A stretch of 64,000 nt of DNA, from the sequence record OR836606.1. The stretch is one strand, 5' to 3'. This document shows positions 2,179-46,293 of this stretch, in pieces (within the stretch, counting starts at the first letter, position 1; the number at the start of each line of letters is the position of its first letter). The notes beneath the pieces are model-generated. The model ran no database searches. It was not told where the DNA came from and saw nothing but the letters and a program-made list of their open reading frames with translations. Position numbers and translations under genes: made by a program. The DNA is from Staphylococcus phage LY01.

Positions 2179-2454
2179 TTATTTAAGATTATCTCTGATA
2201 AAATTCTTTAAATACTTTTTAGTTACTTCAGAATGTGAATTTAATTCGTTAGAAAGACGAACTAATTCTAGTTTCACTTCATTCAATTTCTTTTCATTAG
2301 TTTGATTAGAACTTTCTATTCTATTAATTAATGTACATATGATATCATTTAAATAATGATAATTATCTTTCATAGTATTTAATTTAATTTCATTCATTCT
2401 AGTACGTTCTTCTAATTCGTCCATACGCTTAATTAAACTTTTTTCATTATTCAA
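2179..2454 (-). CDS. small coiled-coil protein (91 aa), paralog family
   Basis: Ends ...NFIRDNLK, similar to the C-terminal IVKENLK motif of ORFs 2475-2723 and 3191-3379. Confidence 0.4.
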   Translation of the reverse strand: MNNEKSLIKRMDELEERTRMNEIKLNTMKDNYHYLNDIICTLINRIESSNQTNEKKLNEVKLELVRLSNELNSHSEVTKKYLKNFIRDNLK

Positions 2455-2474
2455 AATAAAATCACATCTCTTTA

Positions 2475-2723
2475 TTATTTAAAGTTTTCTTTAACAATTT
2501 CGTTAGACAATTTATTTATATAATCATTCTTAAATTCTGTATGCTTAGAAATTGACACTATTGCTTCTTTAAGAAGTTTATTTTCTTTTTTAAGATTTTC
2601 ATTATATGCATAAAGATTATTTACAGCTTTATTTAATTTTTCAATTTCAAAATTAAGACGATCTAAATTAGCTATGCTCCTAAATTCAATAGTTTTCAAT
2701 TTTTCTTTAATTTCTTTATCCAT
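2475..2723 (-). CDS. small coiled-coil protein (82 aa), paralog family
   Basis: Ends ...NEIVKENFK, shared with 3191-3379 (NEIVKENLK). Confidence 0.4.
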   Translation of the reverse strand: MDKEIKEKLKTIEFRSIANLDRLNFEIEKLNKAVNNLYAYNENLKKENKLLKEAIVSISKHTEFKNDYINKLSNEIVKENFK

Positions 2724-2735
2724 TTTTAATCACCC

Positions 2736-3191
2736 TTATTTAATTAATTTAAATAAATTACGTCCAAATTCCTTATACTTTTTATTTTCTAATATACTGA
2801 AATCAACTAAGCTGCTATCAACTCTAAGTAAATATATTGAATCATCTTTTTTATTTTTATTATTTAATATAAAACTTCCAAAATAGATATTACCTTCATT
2901 AGGTTTTTCTTTTTTAACGTTTACTGCATTTTCATTAAATTCAAATTTATAAATGAAACCTAGTAATTGTATTGGACCGTTTTTAAATATATGATAATCG
3001 AAATTATTTTCAAATTTATGGTCTTCATTATTAATTTTCTCAATTAATTCATCTTTAATAACTTCATTATAAAAAGATTCATCCACTTGACTTAATGGCC
3101 TTAAATATGATTCTTCATCTACCTTTGGTTCTAACATTTTAATTTTTTGATCTAAAGTTAATTCTTTGGCAATAACTTTTTCATTTGACAT
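2736..3191 (-). CDS. hypothetical protein (151 aa)
   Basis: ORF in the same operon-like block on the minus strand. Confidence 0.45.
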   Translation of the reverse strand: MSNEKVIAKELTLDQKIKMLEPKVDEESYLRPLSQVDESFYNEVIKDELIEKINNEDHKFENNFDYHIFKNGPIQLLGFIYKFEFNENAVNVKKEKPNEGNIYFGSFILNNKNKKDDSIYLLRVDSSLVDFSILENKKYKEFGRNLFKLIK

Positions 3192-3379
3192 TATTTTAAA
3201 TTCTCCTTAACAATTTCATTTACTATTTTATTTAATTCCTTTTCATCATAACCACTATTCTTTTTAATATTAATTATAAATTTTTTTAATTCTTTATTTT
3301 CTTCTTTTATCTTATTTGTATAGAAATTATCTATGCTCATGGAAATACCTTTTGAATTTACGTTTATAATTGAAGACAT
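3191..3379 (-). CDS. small coiled-coil protein (62 aa), paralog family
   Basis: C-terminal NEIVKENLK motif shared with 2475-2723. Confidence 0.4.
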   Translation of the reverse strand: MSSIINVNSKGISMSIDNFYTNKIKEENKELKKFIINIKKNSGYDEKELNKIVNEIVKENLK

Positions 3380-3391
3380 CTTAAATTCCCC

Positions 3392-3655
3392 TTACATGAA
3401 TTTTTTATTTAAATCTTTATAAATTAATTTTTTTAATTCTTTTCTATCATATTTATTTTCTTGATATAGTTTAAAAAGGAAACGATTGAGTTCCCTATTC
3501 TCTTCTTTAAGTTTATTAATCTCATCAATTTTATCTCGCCCTGATAAATTTCTACCTATACTATTTATATTTTTAGAAATATTATTCATTGCTGCTTGTA
3601 AATGATTTTTATTAATTTTACTACTCGCATTATTATTATTATTATTATTATCCAC
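3392..3655 (-). CDS. small N-rich/coiled-coil protein (87 aa)
   Basis: ORF with poly-N tract. Similar E/K-rich architecture. Confidence 0.35.
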   Translation of the reverse strand: MDNNNNNNNASSKINKNHLQAAMNNISKNINSIGRNLSGRDKIDEINKLKEENRELNRFLFKLYQENKYDRKELKKLIYKDLNKKFM

Positions 3656-3675
3656 TTATATCATCCTTATACATA

Positions 3676-4902
3676 TTATTGAACTACAATCAAATTCTTT
3701 TTAGCACGAGTGATAGCTGTGTATAATGACTTAAATCTATCTTTACTCATATTTTCACTAAATACTATTACATTATCAAATTCAGAACCTTGAGATTTAT
3801 GAATAGTGATTCCGTATGCAAAATTAAATGGATTTACTTTCATACCAAAATCAGACATCTCAGTTACATATCGTTTCTTAAATATTTTATTAATTTCATT
3901 ATCTCTGTGTCTTAGATCAAATAATTCTTGTTGATCTCCAATAGTGCCTTCAAAAATTAAATCATCATAATATATTCTACTAAATCTTTCCTTTTCAAAA
4001 CCTTTAGGTTTAAAATCCATTTGAGTTGATTTAGTCATAGGTTTTTTCTTACCAGATCTAGTTATATTTCCAATTAGACCGTTAGTTAAATATTGAGTTA
4101 TATCACCTTCATTAACTACTTTAGACCAATTATTTTTTAAACACATAATTTTTTCATCCTCTTTAGGGAATGGATTATTTTCAACATCGATATTTAATAT
4201 TTGACTTCTATAGAATCTATTAAATTGATCTACCGTTCTATTATAGCTCATTAAAACTTGATCTGCATTCTTATACATGTCTAAAGTTAATTCATCTGAA
4301 GTAATTACATGTACATTATCTCCATAAGAACCGTATTCTAAATCTTTACCATTACGAACTAAATTAGCTGCAACAAGTATAGGATTATCTAATGACTGTC
4401 TTACTGGTTCATCTAAGAATATGTCAGGTTTATCTAATAATTCATTTCTTCCTGATAAGCTTTTAAGCTGTGCGGGGTCTCCTAAACAAAGTATAGGTAT
4501 ACCAAAACTTTGAATTTCTTCTATCATCTTCATAGGAACCATTGAAACTTCGTCTATGATTATTAACTTAATATCACTTGGTAACTCATCTTTTAATGTA
4601 AAATTTACTTTACCAGTTTTCTCATCCATAAAATGATTATAAATAGTTCTATGGATTGTAGTTGCATTTAATCCTCTTTTGACTAACACACCTGCAGCCA
4701 TTCCTGTATATGCTATAAAAGAAACATTAGCTTCATGTAAACCTAAAGAATCGATTATTTTAGTCATTGTATAGGACTTCCCACTTCCAGCGATGCCTGA
4801 TAATACAAAAGGTCTATGACTATCATTATTATACCATTCTTTAGCTAATCTTAACCCTTCTTCTTGTTTTTTATTTAACCCCATTATCTTAATACACCTC
4901 AA
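3676..4902 (-). CDS. SF1 DNA helicase, Dda/RecD-like (408 aa)
   Basis: Walker A GIAGSGKSYT and Walker B IIDEVSM. C-terminal GITIHKSQGSEFDNVIVF motif typical of the RecD/Dda/Pif1 family. Confidence 0.75.
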   Translation of the reverse strand: MRCIKIMGLNKKQEEGLRLAKEWYNNDSHRPFVLSGIAGSGKSYTMTKIIDSLGLHEANVSFIAYTGMAAGVLVKRGLNATTIHRTIYNHFMDEKTGKVNFTLKDELPSDIKLIIIDEVSMVPMKMIEEIQSFGIPILCLGDPAQLKSLSGRNELLDKPDIFLDEPVRQSLDNPILVAANLVRNGKDLEYGSYGDNVHVITSDELTLDMYKNADQVLMSYNRTVDQFNRFYRSQILNIDVENNPFPKEDEKIMCLKNNWSKVVNEGDITQYLTNGLIGNITRSGKKKPMTKSTQMDFKPKGFEKERFSRIYYDDLIFEGTIGDQQELFDLRHRDNEINKIFKKRYVTEMSDFGMKVNPFNFAYGITIHKSQGSEFDNVIVFSENMSKDRFKSLYTAITRAKKNLIVVQ

Positions 4903-27826: not shown

Positions 27827-28897
27827 TTAATCTATATAATAACTATGACTAAATCTATCATCCGCTTTATTTTTATATGAATCGATTATATTCTTATTAA
27901 GTTCATTAATATCAATTGAATCATAATCTTCTTCTTTAGTATTTTCAGCTTTACCTAATAAATAACCATTTCCTTCTTGAGAGAAGAAATCGTGATTTCC
28001 AGTTGATGTCTTTAATCCTGCCATTACAATAGGATTTACATCTTCGTCAGTAGTTTCGAAAATAGGATCTAATTTAAGGTTTAATAATGCTTTATTGGCA
28101 TTGTATTGAGCAAACAATTTAACATCTTCAGCCCAACCAATTTCAGTATAAACTTCTTCAATGAATTCACATTCAACTTGATAAAGTTCAAATAGTAAGT
28201 TAGTTACCCACATTTTAGTTTCATTTTTTTCTTCTTCACTTAATTTTTCAAATCTCTTACTGAATTTATATCCAATATATGAACCATGAACAGACTCATC
28301 TCTTAAAATTAATTTTATAATTTCAAGAACTGATTTAAGACTATCTTTCAATCTTAAAGGAGTATAGAAACCTGAATAGAATAAGAATGATTCTAAAAAT
28401 ACTGAAGCTGCTTGAACTTTAAGAATGTCTCCAGATTGATAAGCTTCATTTATTAATTTAATTTTCTTTTGTACATATTTATTATTTTCTGCCCATTCAA
28501 AGTTTTCATCTACTTCTTTTGAAGTACATAATGTAGTAAAAATAGTACTATAACTACGAGCATGAATTGATTCCATAAAACCAATATTTCTTAATACGTC
28601 TTCTTCTAATGTAGTTAATGCGCTATGCATTAAAGCATCAGAACCTTCACGAGACTGAAGTGTATCTAAAATAGTTAATTCAGCAAATACTTTATTAACT
28701 ACCCCTTTAGTAACATCATCAGTGTTAGACCAAGCTTTAATATCATTTGAGACTGGAATACGTGTTGATGTCCAAAATTGAGACACTAAAGTATCATATG
28801 TCATAATATCTACATAATCATCTACTCTATTCCAGTTTACAGGTGTATAATAACCTTTATCTTTTGTATAACTTGTTAAGAAATCTCCTCTATCCAT
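27827..28897 (-). CDS. nrdF: ribonucleotide reductase class Ib beta subunit NrdF (356 aa)
   Basis: Ferritin-like RNR small-subunit architecture and conserved E/H metal ligand regions. Located directly downstream of nrdE. Confidence 0.8.
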   Translation of the reverse strand: MDRGDFLTSYTKDKGYYTPVNWNRVDDYVDIMTYDTLVSQFWTSTRIPVSNDIKAWSNTDDVTKGVVNKVFAELTILDTLQSREGSDALMHSALTTLEEDVLRNIGFMESIHARSYSTIFTTLCTSKEVDENFEWAENNKYVQKKIKLINEAYQSGDILKVQAASVFLESFLFYSGFYTPLRLKDSLKSVLEIIKLILRDESVHGSYIGYKFSKRFEKLSEEEKNETKMWVTNLLFELYQVECEFIEEVYTEIGWAEDVKLFAQYNANKALLNLKLDPIFETTDEDVNPIVMAGLKTSTGNHDFFSQEGNGYLLGKAENTKEEDYDSIDINELNKNIIDSYKNKADDRFSHSYYID

Positions 28898-28975
28898 ATT
28901 ATCTTAAACTCCTTCTTTTAATTTTAAATATTATGAATTAGGATAGAATAAACATCTATCCTAATATTTCATTAA

Positions 28976-30430
28976 TTATATACTACAGCTTTCACATTCA
29001 ACAATACCTTGAGAACTTTCATCATGATCAGGTGAATAAATACGAGTATAATACATAGATTTAATACCTTTACTATAAGCATAGTTACGTAATCTACTAA
29101 TATCACGAGTAGTAGTTTCTTTATCTAAAGAATCTTTTTTCCATTCATAAAGTTCTGGATCAAGTTCATTCATTAAGTAAATATTCATAGAAATACCTTG
29201 ATCTACGTGATATTGAGCTTCTGAATATAAATCAATCATATCTCTCATATCTAATTGGTAAGCATTTTTCTTAAAGTATTCAAAGTTGTCTGGTGTAATA
29301 CCTGGCGCTGGATAGAAAGTAGTGCCTGTTTTACCTTCTACACGTTCTTCAATTAACTCAACAATAGGATGAATTGAAGGCGATACTTCTCTAACATAGC
29401 CAATAGACCCATTAGGAGCTACAGCTAATCTATTCTGATTGTATAAACCATCCATAACAATATTATTTCTTAATTGTTCCCAATCGCTATCAGATGGAAT
29501 AAAAATGTCTTTAAATAATTCTTTAACTTTTTCAGTACGTGGTTGAATATTTTTACCAATATAACGTTTATCAAAATAAGAACCATCAGCATATTCAGTT
29601 TTCTCAAATAAATAGAATGATTCATTTTTCTCTTTAGCAATTTTATTTGATTCAACTAATGTCCAATAATTTAATAACATGAAATAAATATTAGTGAAAT
29701 CTTTAGATTCTTCAGAACCATATTGAATGTGGTTTTCAGCTAAGAAAGTGTGTAATCCCATAGCACCTAAACCAACTGTATGAAATAAATCATTTCCTTT
29801 TTTAATTGTAGGTACAGCTTCGATATTAGATTTTTCAGATACTGAATTTAAACTTCTTAACATAGTTCCTACTGATTTACCAAAATCTTCCGATTTCATT
29901 AAACCGGATACAATAGTTGAAGCTAAGTTACATGAAATATCTGTTCCTGTTTTAACATATTGTTGATTATCATCAACTAATGAAGGATATTGTACCTGCA
30001 AAATTTCTGAACACAAATTACTCATTTTAATTTTACCATGACTGATTGGATTAGCTCTATTAGCTGTATCAATATTAATGATATAAGGATATCCAGATTC
30101 TTGTTGTAATTTACTAATTGTGGTTTCTAAATCACGAGCATACATTTTATCTTTACTAATACGTTTATCATCTACAAAGATATCATAATAAGTATTAAAG
30201 TCAATACTGTCGAAATCCAAATCGTAATATTTTTTAATGTCATATGGGCTAAATGTATATAATGATTTATTTTCTTTAACTAACTGATAATATTTGTCTG
30301 GAACGGTTAAACCTAATGAAATAGTTTTTAATCTCACTTTCTCATCAGCATTTTCTTTCTTAGTATCTAAGAATTTCACTACATCTTTATGGAAAATATT
30401 TAAATAGAGCGCACCTGCACCATTACGTTG
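28976..30430 (-). CDS. nrdE: ribonucleotide reductase class Ib alpha subunit NrdE, exon 2 (begins QRNGAGALYLNIF...)
   Basis: C-terminal two-thirds of the RNR large subunit. The annotated ATG at 30433-30431 is predicted to be the last 3 nt of the intron (omega-G = 30431). Confidence 0.8.
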   Translation of the reverse strand, partial: QRNGAGALYLNIFHKDVVKFLDTKKENADEKVRLKTISLGLTVPDKYYQLVKENKSLYTFSPYDIKKYYDLDFDSIDFNTYYDIFVDDKRISKDKMYARDLETTISKLQQESGYPYIINIDTANRANPISHGKIKMSNLCSEILQVQYPSLVDDNQQYVKTGTDISCNLASTIVSGLMKSEDFGKSVGTMLRSLNSVSEKSNIEAVPTIKKGNDLFHTVGLGAMGLHTFLAENHIQYGSEESKDFTNIYFMLLNYWTLVESNKIAKEKNESFYLFEKTEYADGSYFDKRYIGKNIQPRTEKVKELFKDIFIPSDSDWEQLRNNIVMDGLYNQNRLAVAPNGSIGYVREVSPSIHPIVELIEERVEGKTGTTFYPAPGITPDNFEYFKKNAYQLDMRDMIDLYSEAQYHVDQGISMNIYLMNELDPELYEWKKDSLDKETTTRDISRLRNYAYSKGIKSMYYTRIYSPDHDESSQGIVECESCSI

Positions 30431-30592
30431 CATTTATATTAACTATATGAATTTCATATAGATTAGACTATATCTTATACTTCTAATAAGTATTATTATA
30501 TTTAATCGTTGGACAATCATAAAGATTGATGCTGATTAAGTTTATAAACTTTTCCAGCAATTAATAATATTTATACTGAGCCATTAAAATTA
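30431..30592 (-). ncRNA. miniature group I self-splicing intron (162 nt) in nrdE
   Basis: On the minus strand, in order: IGS GGCUCAG pairing with exon end CUGGGU (terminal U.G), P AAUUGCUGG, Q AUCAGCAUC, R GUCCAACGAUUAAAUA, S GAUAUAGUCU, P9 hairpin CUAUAUG/CAUAUAG, 3' tail ending ...AUAAAUG. Splicing yields ...SYVNQLG|QRNGAGALYL, a canonical NrdE junction. Confidence 0.75.
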
Positions 30593-31339
30593 ACCCAGTT
30601 GATTTACATATGATAATGTATCTTCAAATACTTTCATAACCGGAACTACTCCTGAAGCGGCACCTTCTACACCTTTAATTGGATCATTATCTGCACGTAG
30701 ATTTGATAAACTGATTCCACAGCCTCCGCCTCTTTTACTTAATTGAGCTACGTTAGTAACAGTTCTATAAATTGAAGCTAGAGAATCTTCCATTGTAACT
30801 AAGAAACAACTTATTAACTCACCAGAACGTTTTCTACCTGAATTGAGAAATGTCGGTGTAGCGGGTTGGAAAGTTCCTGTAATGATTTCTTTAGCGATAT
30901 TCTTAGCTAATTCTTCATCTCCATCAGCTAAATATAAAGCTACAAATAAAATTCTATCTTCATATAGTTCTAATAAAATCTCCCCAGCATCATCTTTCAT
31001 TGCATACTGTTCATAGAATTTTTTAGCCCCCAATAAGCGAGTAAATCTATGCTTATAAGCCATTAATTCTTTCATTAATCCTTTAATGAACTCAAAATCA
31101 TAATTATTGATCATATCGCCATCAATATAATCATTATCAACTAGATAATTAATTTTTTCTTTATATGTTTTAAAGTATCTTACATTCTTATTAACTGAAT
31201 CTAAGAAATATTTTTTAACTGAAGCTAATTCAAATTCTAAATCTAAATTACCGTCTTTTAATTGTGACCCTCTTGAGTTTAATTCGTTATATGAATAATC
31301 TTTAAATTTTTCTGAAGTTAAATCAATTTCTTTTGGCAT
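30593..31339 (-). CDS. nrdE: NrdE exon 1 (248 aa; FQPATPTFLNSGRK...SCFL...KRGGGCG)
   Basis: N-terminal RNR large-subunit motifs. The stop codon TAA at 30590-30592 is the first 3 nt of the intron. Confidence 0.8.
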
Positions 31340-31368: not shown

Positions 31369-32082
31369 TTAATTTATTTCTTGTATTGCTTTTAAAATTT
31401 CTCTTTTATTATAATTTATCATTTCTTTATCATACTTCATGATAACTTTTTCCAAATTCTTTACAATATCTTCGAAAATTTTTTCTGACTTTGGATATTT
31501 TAAACCAAATCTTGTTGGTTCATAAACTAATATATGTTCGATACTACTTAAAGTGTTAGAAAAAGAGTACCAAAATGATATTTGATCTGAAGATTTCCTA
31601 AAAGATAAAGTTCTTAAATCTTTTATCTTAGATTTTTTAGATATTTTTGTAGGTTTACCATTTGGTTTAAAATAATATGATACGTCTGAAGAGTTTATTT
31701 TCTTATCCTTCAAAAAACCTCCATTTTTATTAATTTCAGAAATTCCTTCTTTTATATAATTCGGAGAATTTTCTATAAAATTAATCATAAGTTTTTTACC
31801 GGATTTCTGAAATTGTTCATGGTCCATTGTATTTAATTTATCTTCTTTTAATTCATTCCATTTATCAATAAATAATTTTAATATATTTTCTTCTATATGA
31901 GAATTGGAGGTTTTTATAGAAAATGAATTATTTTTTATATTTCCATTCTTTTTATAATCTTCATTTACTTTTTGATAATATTTTAATATACCCTTACTGA
32001 TATTATCATTTTCATTTTCTATTTTTTGACTATTGTTTTTAAATGATTTAACTGAGCTGTAATGAATTATATTTTCTTCCAT
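31369..32082 (-). CDS. hypothetical protein (237 aa)
   Basis: ORF between nrdI and nrdE. Confidence 0.45.
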   Translation of the reverse strand: MEENIIHYSSVKSFKNNSQKIENENDNISKGILKYYQKVNEDYKKNGNIKNNSFSIKTSNSHIEENILKLFIDKWNELKEDKLNTMDHEQFQKSGKKLMINFIENSPNYIKEGISEINKNGGFLKDKKINSSDVSYYFKPNGKPTKISKKSKIKDLRTLSFRKSSDQISFWYSFSNTLSSIEHILVYEPTRFGLKYPKSEKIFEDIVKNLEKVIMKYDKEMINYNKREILKAIQEIN

Positions 32083-32106: not shown

Positions 32107-32511
32107 TTAACTTATAATACTAGAGTTACTTAACATTTCTAATTTTTTATTTAATTCTAAATGCTCATTTTTTATTCCATGAAGCTCAATTCCCATTATT
32201 AATTTTTTATTGAAATCTTTACATAATTTTTTAGGTGTAGTCAAGAATTCATAATTGAGATTTCTATTACCTGAACCAACTATACCTACACAGTTCATTA
32301 AATTATTACCCTTATTAAAGAATTTTTCTATATGATTATATACTGCATGCGGAGTATTATAAGAACCGCAAATAAGAACATATTCTTCATTAATTTCTAT
32401 ATCTTCACAATTATTTTTATTAAGTTCAATAGGTTCGCCGATTATTGATTTATCTAATTTATGTGCAAATATTTTACTATTACCTGTTAATGTAAAATAA
32501 ACTAATCTCAT
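32107..32511 (-). CDS. nrdI: NrdI flavodoxin-like protein (134 aa)
   Basis: N-terminus MRLVYFTLTGNSKIF matches the NrdI LVYFSS.TGNT signature. Size and position in the RNR cluster fit. Confidence 0.6.
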   Translation of the reverse strand: MRLVYFTLTGNSKIFAHKLDKSIIGEPIELNKNNCEDIEINEEYVLICGSYNTPHAVYNHIEKFFNKGNNLMNCVGIVGSGNRNLNYEFLTTPKKLCKDFNKKLIMGIELHGIKNEHLELNKKLEMLSNSSIIS

Positions 32512-36599: not shown

Positions 36600-37140
36600 T
36601 ATCGAGGTAAAAATTATTTTAATTAAATTAAACTCACGAATTCCAGAAATCCCTTTCAGGTTCTGTTAAATAGCAAGACTATATCATGATCCATTAAATC
36701 AATGGACCCCTCGCACTTCGAAAAACTTCTGATGAAGTTAATCTACTCTACTCACTTCACATAGTATTTCAACTATGCTTATTCAGGTTAATCAAACCTG
36801 TGCTTTCGATAGTCGTTGAACGTTTATCCATCATGTGGACACTTCGCTGCTAGACTTCCCATTGTTTACAAACTTTAGCGATCTAGGGTTTTCACCTAGA
36901 CTTGTTTTCAGCATAGTTCATCTTAGAGATTTTTTCTGTCTTTCGACTGCATGTCACGCTATCCATTACTGGCATACGTTGTAGCTCTCTAAGCTTTAGG
37001 GTTTTACAAGCAATTCACGAGGTATTTTTACCACTAATTTCATGAATTAAAATTAGTTTAATTTACTTATATAGTAGCAGAGCGTGAAACATGAATTAAT
37101 AAGAATTTAAGTCTTAATTCACTTAAAATATCTTAAATTA
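36600..37140 (-). ncRNA. full-size group I ribozyme core of the IStron (5' part)
   Basis: P/Q/R/S elements in canonical order on the minus strand. Long peripheral insertions. P9-like hairpin CAGAA.../...UUCUG before the tnpB start. Begins immediately after the terminase exon 5 sense codon, so the in-frame UAA is the first 3 intron nt. Confidence 0.65.
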
Positions 37141-37977: not shown

Positions 37978-38138
37978 CATATTTTTTATCCTATATTAAT
38001 TTAATATAGATAAGACTATATCTTAGTATATTATAATACCATTTATTATTTAGTCGTTAAACAAGTATTATCAACTTGATGCTGATTGTCTTAATAAAGA
38101 TTTTCCAGCAATTAAATAAATAAGCCCAGTTTAATTTT
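37978..38138 (-). ncRNA. miniature group I intron, terminase intron 4 (161 nt)
   Basis: IGS GGGCUU pairs with exon end GCCU (terminal U.G). P AAUUGCUGGAAAAUC, Q AAUCAGCAUC, R GUUUAACGACUAAAUA, S GAUAUAGUCU, P9 CUAUAUUAAAUUAAUAUAG, ends ...AUAUG. Confidence 0.7.
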
Positions 38139-38210: not shown

Positions 38211-38370
38211 CTTTTAATATTAATCTACATGGATTCCATATAGAATAGACTATATCTTAGTATTATATTAATACTATTTATTATTTAGTCGTTGAACACT
38301 ATAAATAGCGATGCTGATCGTCTTAATAAAGATTTTCCAGCAATTAAATAAATAAGCCCGCATTAATTTC
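38211..38370 (-). ncRNA. miniature group I intron, terminase intron 3 (160 nt)
   Basis: IGS GCGGGCUU pairs with exon end GAGGCCU (terminal U.G). P/Q/R/S elements. P9 CUAUAUGG/CCAUGUAG. Tail UUAAUAUUAAAAG. Confidence 0.7.
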
Positions 38371-38440: not shown

Positions 38441-38596
38441 CATTATGTTAACTATATTTAAAAAATATAGATCAGACTATATCATACTCATATAAATAAG
38501 TGAATATATTTAGTCGTTGAACACTATAATTAGTGATGCTGATTAAGATAATAATCTATTCCAGCAATTAATATTCTTTTACTACTGCAACTATCT
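38441..38596 (-). ncRNA. miniature group I intron, terminase intron 2 (156 nt)
   Basis: P1: micro-exon end CUACUGU pairs with IGS GCAGUAG (7 bp, terminal U.G). P AAUUGCUGGAAUAG, Q AAUCAGCAUC, R GUUCAACGACUAAAUA, S GAUAUAGUCU, P9 CUAUAUUUUUUAAAUAUAG, tail UUAACAUAAUG. Confidence 0.6.
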
Positions 38597-38610: not shown

Positions 38611-38737
38611 CTATTTTAGACTATATCTTCAATTTTATAATTGTCTTTTATTTAGTCGTTGAACACATATGTGATGCTGATCAAATTAAATAATTTGTCC
38701 CAGCAATTAAAAAGATTTATAGCAAGCCATGATATTA
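38611..38737 (-). ncRNA. miniature group I intron, terminase intron 1 (127 nt, no P9 hairpin)
   Basis: IGS AUGGCUUGCU pairs with exon end AGCAGGU (7 bp, terminal U.G). P AAUUGCUGGG, P5 CAAAUU/AAUUUG, Q AUCAGCAUC, P6 ACAU/AUGU, R GUUCAACGACUAAAUA, P8 CAAUU/AAUUG, S GAUAUAGUCU, then AAAAUAG|. Confidence 0.6.
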
Positions 38738-45506: not shown

Positions 45507-45660
45507 TTTAGGTTAAATGGCTCACATTAAATTATATTAATTGCTGGAAAAGATTATTATCTTAATCAGCATCAACTTAATACAAGTTGTTCAACGACTA
45601 AATATATAGCCTAGATGATATAGTCTAACCTTTATTAAAATGATAAAGAATAATAATTTG
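45507..45660 (+). ncRNA. miniature group I intron 1 (~154 nt, boundaries +/-3 nt)
   Basis: IGS GGCUCAC, P AAUUGCUGGAAAAG, P5 GAUUA/UAAUC, Q AAUCAGCAUC, P6 AACUU/AAGUU, R GUUCAACGACUAAAUA, S GAUAUAGUCU, P9 CUUUAU/AUAAAG, tail AAUAAUAAUUUG. Confidence 0.7.
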
Positions 45661-45920: not shown

Positions 45921-46101
45921 TAAATTGTAGCAGCTTTATATAGAAATATATATTGAAAAAGAATATTAATTGCTAAGAAGTTTAATTAAGCCAATTAGCA
46001 TCAACTTAATACAAGTTGTTCAACGACTAAATATATTTACTCTTAATAAGAGTATGATATAGTCTAATCTTAATAGTAAGATCTATTAAGTTAATATAAT
46101 G
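45921..46101 (+). ncRNA. miniature group I intron 2 (~181 nt)
   Basis: P AAUUGCUAAGAAG with compensatory Q AAUUAGCAUC (P4 covariation relative to the other copies). R GUUCAACGACUAAAUA, S GAUAUAGUCU, P9 CUUAAUAG/CUAUUAAG, tail UUAAUAUAAUG. Confidence 0.65.
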
Positions 46102-46121
46102 TACGATAAAATAAACCTTGT
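46102..46121 (+). CDS. head-region hypothetical protein, micro-exon 3 of 4 (~20 nt; only frame YDKINLV is open)
   Basis: Segment between omega-G of intron 2 (46101) and the predicted 5' splice site of intron 3 (UUGU|, IGS GCAA 10 nt downstream). Alternative lengths of 18 or 24 nt are possible. Confidence 0.4.
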
Positions 46122-46293
46122 CGCTTCTTAAAGCAATTTAAGAATGATAAAACTATTAATTGCTAAAATCTTTTATTAAAGTAATTAGCATCAACTTAAT
46201 AAAAGTTGTTCAAAGACTAAATATAGTTTATCCTTTTATAGGATAATGATATAGTCTGATCTATATTATACTAATATAGATAACATAAATGTG
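46122..46293 (+). ncRNA. miniature group I intron 3 (~172 nt, boundaries uncertain by a few nt)
   Basis: P AAUUGCUAAAAUC, Q AAUUAGCAUC, R GUUCAAAGACUAAAUA, S GAUAUAGUCU, P9 CUAUAUUA/UAAUAUAG, tail AUAACAUAAAUG(UG). Confidence 0.6.

Follow-up and report, generated by a model that had tools for sequence, protein, structure and literature searches.

We found that the 162 nt separating two nrdE reading frames in Staphylococcus phage LY01 very probably constitute a near-minimal, ORF-free group I intron (30592..30431) in the class Ib nrdE gene of an S6/MarsHill-like Staphylococcus jumbo phage. Our analysis covered a 64,000-nt stretch of this phage's DNA (OR836606.1), referred to here as the window. 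The analysis directly showed where the insert begins and ends, that its removal restores the reading frame, that the helices of the core covary and that both exons are under purifying selection. Both the kind of element, a group I intron in a phage RNR gene, and its insertion site, the Gly|Gln boundary, are already known, and the interest of this intron rests on its extreme compactness and its family context, not on nrdE having an intron. New here is the recognition of the nrdE insert as a P2-less group I intron of 162 nt and as a member of a mini-intron family that has proliferated.

The nrdE region of the window is 90–92% identical to that of nine Staphylococcus jumbo phages of 260–275 kb (S6, PALS_2, DC4, MarsHill, Madawaska, Machias, SA1, AH12 and PB50). 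The gene and its insert lie on the minus strand of the window, in the following arrangement:

32107..32511, minus strand: nrdI (Pfam Flavodoxin_NdrI)
30590..31339, minus strand: fragment 1 ORF, 249 aa, ...SYVNQLG followed by TAA
30593..31339, minus strand: nrdE exon 1, 249 codons, ending ...SYVNQLG with U30593 as its last base (ORF list, Pfam, PALS_2 alignment)
30431..30592, minus strand: ORF-free insert of 162 nt, very probably a group I intron, absent from PALS_2 (intron position i = 30593 - coordinate)
28976..30433, minus strand: fragment 2 ORF, 485 aa, starting MQRNGAGALYLNIF (M-QRNGAGALYLNIF)
28976..30430, minus strand: nrdE exon 2, 484 codons and a stop, beginning QRNGAGALYLNIF (Pfam Ribonuc_red_lgC 75-523)
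27827..28897, minus strand: nrdF (Pfam Ribonuc_red_sm)

That nrdE is flanked by nrdI, nrdF and an NrdH-like glutaredoxin identifies a class Ib RNR operon. Fragment 1 carries the Pfam domains RNR_N and Ribonuc_red_lgN together with profile positions 2-74 of Ribonuc_red_lgC. This last profile stops at position 74 on the final residue of fragment 1 and continues from position 75 with the second residue of fragment 2, and the Met of fragment 2 is therefore part of the insert rather than a real residue of the protein. The apparent ATG that encodes it is made up of AU and G, the last three bases of the intron.

The operon differs from that of its relatives in two further respects. Between nrdI and nrdE the window holds a 237-aa ORF (31369-32082, minus strand), where PALS_2, AH12, Machias and PB50 have a gap of only ~20 nt. 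Because this ORF has no match in Pfam, PHROG or phage tblastn searches, we regard it as an orphan that has inserted into the RNR operon. Conversely, a 72-aa hypothetical ORF found between nrdE and nrdF in four of four inspected relatives is absent from the window (28898-28990), in which the two genes are spaced by 78 nt and similarity to the relatives begins only at ~28991.

The nrdE gene of PALS_2 is uninterrupted (2,202 nt) and reads ...TTGGGT|CAACGT... at the site, that is, GGT|CAA. With T as the first base of the insert and G as the last, its boundaries are unique and cannot be slid by one base. Joining the exons at 30593|30430 yields 733 aa with no stop, of which 706 are identical to the intron-less PALS_2 NrdE with 0 gaps, including all 70 residues around the junction. 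The joined protein is likewise gapless across the junction when aligned to the solved NrdE structures 1PEM, 6CGL and 9L6O, the junction counterpart being SYANQLGARQGAGA in Salmonella NrdE (1PEM) and RYADQMGQRQGSGA in B. subtilis NrdE (6CGL). Excision thus restores the nrdE reading frame by both DNA and protein comparison, and so precise an insert in nrdE is far beyond chance. A sequence-only reading of the window had placed the insert at 30431-30592, which the intron-less PALS_2 allele fixes as exact, and had proposed that the join restores NQLG|QRNGAGA, as it does in the 733-aa product. Of the fragment sizes it gave, 485 aa stands and 248 aa is off by one (249 aa in the ORF list). It had also set, as the test against itself, an indel at the junction in homologue alignments; we looked for one against PALS_2, 1PEM, 6CGL and 9L6O and found none.

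A local scan with the Rfam group I model (Intron_gpI, RF00028) matched the insert end to end, over model positions 1-253, with 32.8 bits and E = 9e-7. This score lies below the Rfam gathering score of 50, and scans of the whole window, run at the gathering threshold and at an E-value cut-off of 1, found no intron; sub-threshold group I matches surface only in local scans. The shortfall results from the deletion of P2 and the shortening of P6 and P8, and not from mismatches in the core. The structural elements, in intron order where paired strands allow, are:

30576..30598, minus strand: P1 hairpin, in which exon CUGGGU and intron UA pair with the internal guide UGGCUCAG
30590..30592, minus strand: in-frame UAA stop, the first three intron bases (from the sequence)
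30564..30568, minus strand: P3 5' strand AUUAU, then J3/4 UAAU (i25-29 with 94-98; register set from paralogs)
30530..30559, minus strand: P4-P5 hairpin with an A-rich internal loop, J4/5 AAA and J5/4 UAA (Rfam, covariation, fold)
30514..30528, minus strand: P6 hairpin CAAUC/GAUUG (i65-69 with 75-79; 5/5 pairs covary; independently folded)
30503..30509, minus strand: P7 5' strand, made up of A, bulged C30508 and GAUUA (i84 and i86-90 with 123-128; C85 bulged)
30495..30499, minus strand: P3 3' strand AUAAU (covariation alignment)
30478..30492, minus strand: P8 hairpin UACUU/AAGUA (i101-105 with 111-115), the loop of which houses an HNH ORF in PB50
30465..30470, minus strand: P7 3' strand UAGUCU, with J8/7 AAGAUA before it, equal to the Rfam consensus AAGAUAUAGUCU
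30443..30461, minus strand: P9 hairpin CUAUAUG/CAUAUAG (i132-138 with 144-150; 7/7 pairs covary; independently folded)
30431, minus strand: omega-G and 3' splice site (i162), the G of the apparent ATG (intron-less allele)

In P1, exon positions -6 to -1 and i1-2 pair with i10-17 to form 8–9 bp, and this helix was found in both the MFE and the centroid folds. It sets the 5' splice site at U30593 (U-1), in a wobble with G30581 (G12), which agrees with the U.G pair that the sequence-only reading had predicted after GGU. The core helices P3 to P9 are all present in group I order, with P4 at i34-39 with 58-63 and P5 at i43-46 with 51-54, and P3 and P7 together make the pseudoknot typical of group I introns. 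J3/4 (AAU), J4/5 with J5/4 (GAAA..UAA), J6/7-P7 (CAACGAUUAAA) and J8/7-P7' all agree with the Rfam consensus. A ViennaRNA centroid fold, which uses no family model, recovered P1, P4, P5, P6, P8 and P9 (z = -3.1). The identification of the insert as a group I intron therefore holds on a full-length Rfam match, the U.G in P1, P3-P9 with covariation and a terminal G; that G, G30431, is the omega-G expected at the apparent ATG, its boundary being set by the intron-less allele. The G30507-C30466 pair that follows bulged C30508, invariant in 29/29 introns, is the presumed guanosine-binding pair.

The nrdE intron has no P2, peripheral domains, GNRA loops or tetraloop receptors. The start of exon 2 (CAACG) has no complementarity to the P1 loop and we found no convincing P10, while a 2-bp P9.0 (AU/AU) is possible on thin evidence. 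With a G+C content of 23% and very AU-rich helices, the intron may fold only marginally at 37 °C. P7 is invariant in 29/29 introns apart from the nrdE copy, which alone (1/29 family members) has U at i88 (30505), giving a U.G where the others have C-G. This pair lies two pairs from the presumed guanosine-binding pair and could weaken catalysis. The nrdE copy also has C at i81 (30512, J6/7), where the family usually has U, and the two changes are possibly mildly deleterious in the catalytic core.

To describe the helices across relatives we used two covariance models, R1, built on four nrdE orthologues, and R2, from a 31-sequence alignment; nrdE orthologues stand at the centre of the family models. 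Across the 31 related introns, 95.3% of cells are paired versus 66% in shuffled and 28–44% in slid controls, a pairing inflated somewhat by the fitting of the alignment to the model, with a large margin. None of 500 shuffles matched the observed pairing. Both sides have changed in 36 of the 46 pairs, including 5/5 pairs of P3, and the covariation score is 0.60 versus at most 0.11 for slid controls. The same is seen between close orthologues: compared with the window, a C-to-U change in the PB50 exon is offset by a G-to-A change in the P1 guide, and there are compensatory changes in P3, P4, P6, P8 and P9. Between intron-bearing phages dN/dS is 0.05–0.11 for both exons, and it is equal in comparison with an intron-less phage; such purifying selection on both exons indicates that both are translated in frame. 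The intron itself is 94–95% identical to those of AH12 and Machias, a divergence of 5–6% against an exon dS of 0.3–0.55. That it diverges less than synonymous sites suggests constraint on the RNA or recent lateral spread.

These data bear on whether the intron still splices. If it had decayed, nrdE would be a pseudogene or would yield exon 1 only, and the phage would rely on host RNR. Phage RNR genes are often dispensable, the C-to-U change in the otherwise invariant P7 is unique to this copy and the Rfam score is sub-threshold, all of which would fit decay. However, the C-to-U change leaves a wobble pair in P7, the remaining core positions other than C at i81 in J6/7 equal the family consensus, and the nrdE intron has the highest R2 score of all (151.9 bits), though with the family models centred on nrdE orthologues. 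Together with a dN/dS this low in both exons and no frameshift or stop in 2.2 kb, this makes decay very improbable.

We give still less credence to an nrdE that is truly split into two polypeptides that assemble. Fragment 2 does start at an ATG, and the GenBank records of AH12 and PB50 give nrdE as two CDSs. However, no Shine-Dalgarno sequence was found before this ATG, while AAGGAG precedes the genuine start of nrdE; the break interrupts QLG|QRNGAGA, a conserved motif of the barrel; the extra Met is missing from all homologues; and the RNA between the fragments is conserved and structured and bears the hallmarks of a group I intron. We rejected the two-polypeptide gene on these grounds. The intron in the window splits one gene, and the two-CDS entries in AH12 and PB50 look like a mis-annotation: nrdE should be annotated as one 733-aa gene, which these public records divide in two. 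Translational hopping over the 162 nt in the style of T4 gene 60, superficially suggested by a stop right after a Gly take-off codon (GGU UAA), was rejected as well and is scarcely credible, with no GGU landing codon ahead of CAA, a gap far longer than the 50 nt of gene 60 and a group I fold whose core covaries.

For the group I intron, splicing and catalysis are predicted from sequence to follow the canonical two-step transesterification initiated by guanosine. The operon would be transcribed through the intron, and the RNA would adopt P1 together with the P3-P9 core. A guanosine supplied from outside and held in P7 would attack after U30593, the U of the P1 wobble, and the freed 3' OH of exon 1 would then attack after G30431, joining GGU|CAA. 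The expected spliced junction is ...CAACUGGGU|CAACGUAAU..., encoding ...SYVNQLG-QRNGAGA... in a 733-aa NrdE. On unspliced RNA, the UAA at the first intron codon would halt ribosomes. Given the lack of P2, tetraloop-receptor contacts and peripheral domains, and the low G+C content, a protein or RNA chaperone may plausibly assist, although we hold its involvement in splicing of this intron to be only a tentative suggestion.

The nrdE intron belongs to a family. R1 detected six further copies in the window, and R2, run with filters off, found eight members including the nrdE intron. The other seven copies, 127–161 nt in length, lie in the terminase and prohead protease genes, where those with resolved boundaries and the exon between the first two are:

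38737..38611, minus strand: terL intron A, 127 nt, no P9
38610..38597, minus strand: terL micro-exon between introns A and B, 14 nt
38596..38441, minus strand: terL intron B, 156 nt
38370..38211, minus strand: terL intron C, 160 nt
38138..37978, minus strand: terL intron D, 161 nt
45507..45660, plus strand: resolved intron of the prohead scaffold/protease gene, 154 nt, almost no P8

The four terL introns were fixed by alignment to the intron-less S6 gene and by the open joined ORF; without them terL has an open frame reading ...AGRGSTVPMVW... (ANKAGRGSTVPMVWLDEWAF), a motif identical to that of S6. In all six family members with resolved boundaries (6/6), a U paired to G precedes the first intron base, and the last intron base is G. 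P2 is found in none of the eight window copies, one of which lacks P9 and one nearly all of P8. The prohead gene holds two more mini introns, with a short exon between them, in a 365-nt insertion relative to PALS_2 (45927..46291, plus strand); in one of these, P1 is fully Watson-Crick and closed by a GCAA loop, and a U.G wobble is not obvious. Separately, a stretch at 36657-37059 on the minus strand (~400 nt, 39% G+C) gave a sub-threshold match to the full Rfam Intron_gpI model (26.1 bits, E = 1.6e-4), and R2 has a weak match at 36741-36903. The stretch may hold a larger group I intron of another type, downstream in or near terL.

By blastn, the mini-intron family occupies 29 places in Machias, 29 in AH12, 20 in PB50, 12 in Madawaska and 9 in MarsHill. 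All family members tested fall under the Rfam cut-off, and default Rfam thresholds thus overlook the whole family. The DC4 paper sought introns with Rfam and found none, which agrees with the sub-threshold scores obtained here; DC4 also appears to be without the nrdE intron. Korn et al. identified intron-disrupted genes in MarsHill-like phages from protein alignments and were unable to reconstruct terL. Beyond this group, more than 120 IMG/VR viral contigs among the matches listed contain the core pattern TCAACGACTAAAT-N15-45-GATATAGTCT, among them many phage contigs of 200–400 kb with several copies each, as well as giant-virus MAGs. At least 36 places among the IMG/VR matches listed have full-length matches of 160–190 nt to the mini-intron model, suggesting that compact introns of the nrdE type are widespread in uncultivated jumbo phages.

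We tentatively propose, as an idea that could well prove wrong, that the eight window copies (127–162 nt) are the smallest natural group I introns still splicing, and that either their shared core of ~125 nt is a minimal self-splicing unit or a phage-encoded splicing factor is common to the ~30 copies per genome. Either would be new if true. MarsHill-like phages are reported by Korn et al. not to grow at 37 °C, and it is pure speculation that a thermolabile AU-rich fold in essential genes, terL and the prohead protease gene, might contribute to this failure. The minimal catalytic core could be probed in these naturally occurring mini introns, which might also serve as compact components for intron-based RNA circularisation.

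The distribution of the nrdE intron is patchy among the close relatives. It is present in the window, AH12 (OR455461), Machias (MW349128) and PB50 (OR770614), at an identical site in each; it is absent from PALS_2 by direct alignment, and S6, DC4, Madawaska, MarsHill and SA1 appear intron-less at the site from BLAST coverage. The window represents a phage separate from Machias, AH12 and PB50, with ~92% DNA identity. The AH12 and Machias introns are 162 nt long, as in the window, whereas that of PB50 totals 714 nt and carries in its P8 loop an ORF for a 179-aa HNH endonuclease (Pfam HNH, E = 7e-7; PHROG 1271, E = 1e-24). The window's 162-nt intron contains no ORF and hence no homing endonuclease, so that it is not mobile by itself. 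The HNH-bearing form in PB50 and the patchy distribution together indicate that the intron spread by homing and that the ORF was later lost. In the Machias record (3110-4831 of the locus compared) nrdE is already assembled from three exons, by protein alignment, and has a second intron of 982 nt upstream (~620 nt into the gene) that is absent from the window; this larger intron encodes an HNH_3/NUMOD4 endonuclease ORF. The records and the available text of Korn et al. assign no intron class or structure to these orthologues.

The insertion sites of the Twort and SPbeta-type introns were re-derived here from sequence. Phage RNR genes are a classic location for group I introns. The group I intron in bnrdE of SPbeta-like Bacillus phages, examined here in BUCT083 (ON107264), occupies the identical codon boundary, ...Q-M/L-G | Q-R-x-G..., and shares with the window's intron the lack of an ORF and the P7 and J8/7 core motifs. 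At 252 nt and 47% G+C, it carries longer extensions of the P2/P6 type; its match to the mini-intron model is weak (25 bits, E = 0.003), and it is otherwise unalignable to the window's intron. The SPbeta intron reportedly self-splices. BUCT083 nrdE has another insertion of ~1.15 kb (2319-3472 of the locus compared) right after the active-site ...SNLC, presumably the known SPbeta bnrdE intein or intron; the window is empty there. Twort nrdE intron 1, also of group I and also from a Staphylococcus phage, interrupts this conserved motif too, but it sits one codon (3 nt) upstream (NQG|GKREG) and, at 429 nt as mapped here, is 2.6 times the length of the window's intron. R1 found no detectable similarity in Twort, whose introns are said to be spliced in vivo. 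In phages of Bacillus and of Staphylococcus, the NrdE Gly|Gln boundary holds group I introns that look unrelated, and the occupied site, with one HNH-bearing orthologue, illustrates a homing hot spot and the loss of an endonuclease gene.

Small introns in large numbers have parallels as well. Jug jumbo phages carry on average 18.5 small group I introns per genome, which interrupt terL, RNR and polymerase genes and of which metatranscriptome reads back 37/76 (Sci Adv 2026, PMC12880540). Those introns have a mean length of ~206 nt in phages of a Bacteroides host, and the paper describes no structure for them (PMC12880540), whereas the window family measures 127–162 nt in a Staphylococcus phage. 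The crAss-like Zeta phages have up to 14 small group I introns. In the literature on the smallest group I intron, we found no usable statement of size. To our knowledge, the 205-nt Azoarcus pre-tRNA-Ile intron (IC3) is the usual example given for the smallest natural group I intron that self-splices. Like the nrdE intron it is compact and without large peripheral domains, but its sequence is GC-rich and it possesses P2 along with two tetraloop-receptor clamps. The nrdE intron, with 23% G+C and neither P2 nor clamps, is 43 nt shorter than that of Azoarcus, and with its siblings, which range down to 127 nt, it lies well under the lower size limit usually quoted.
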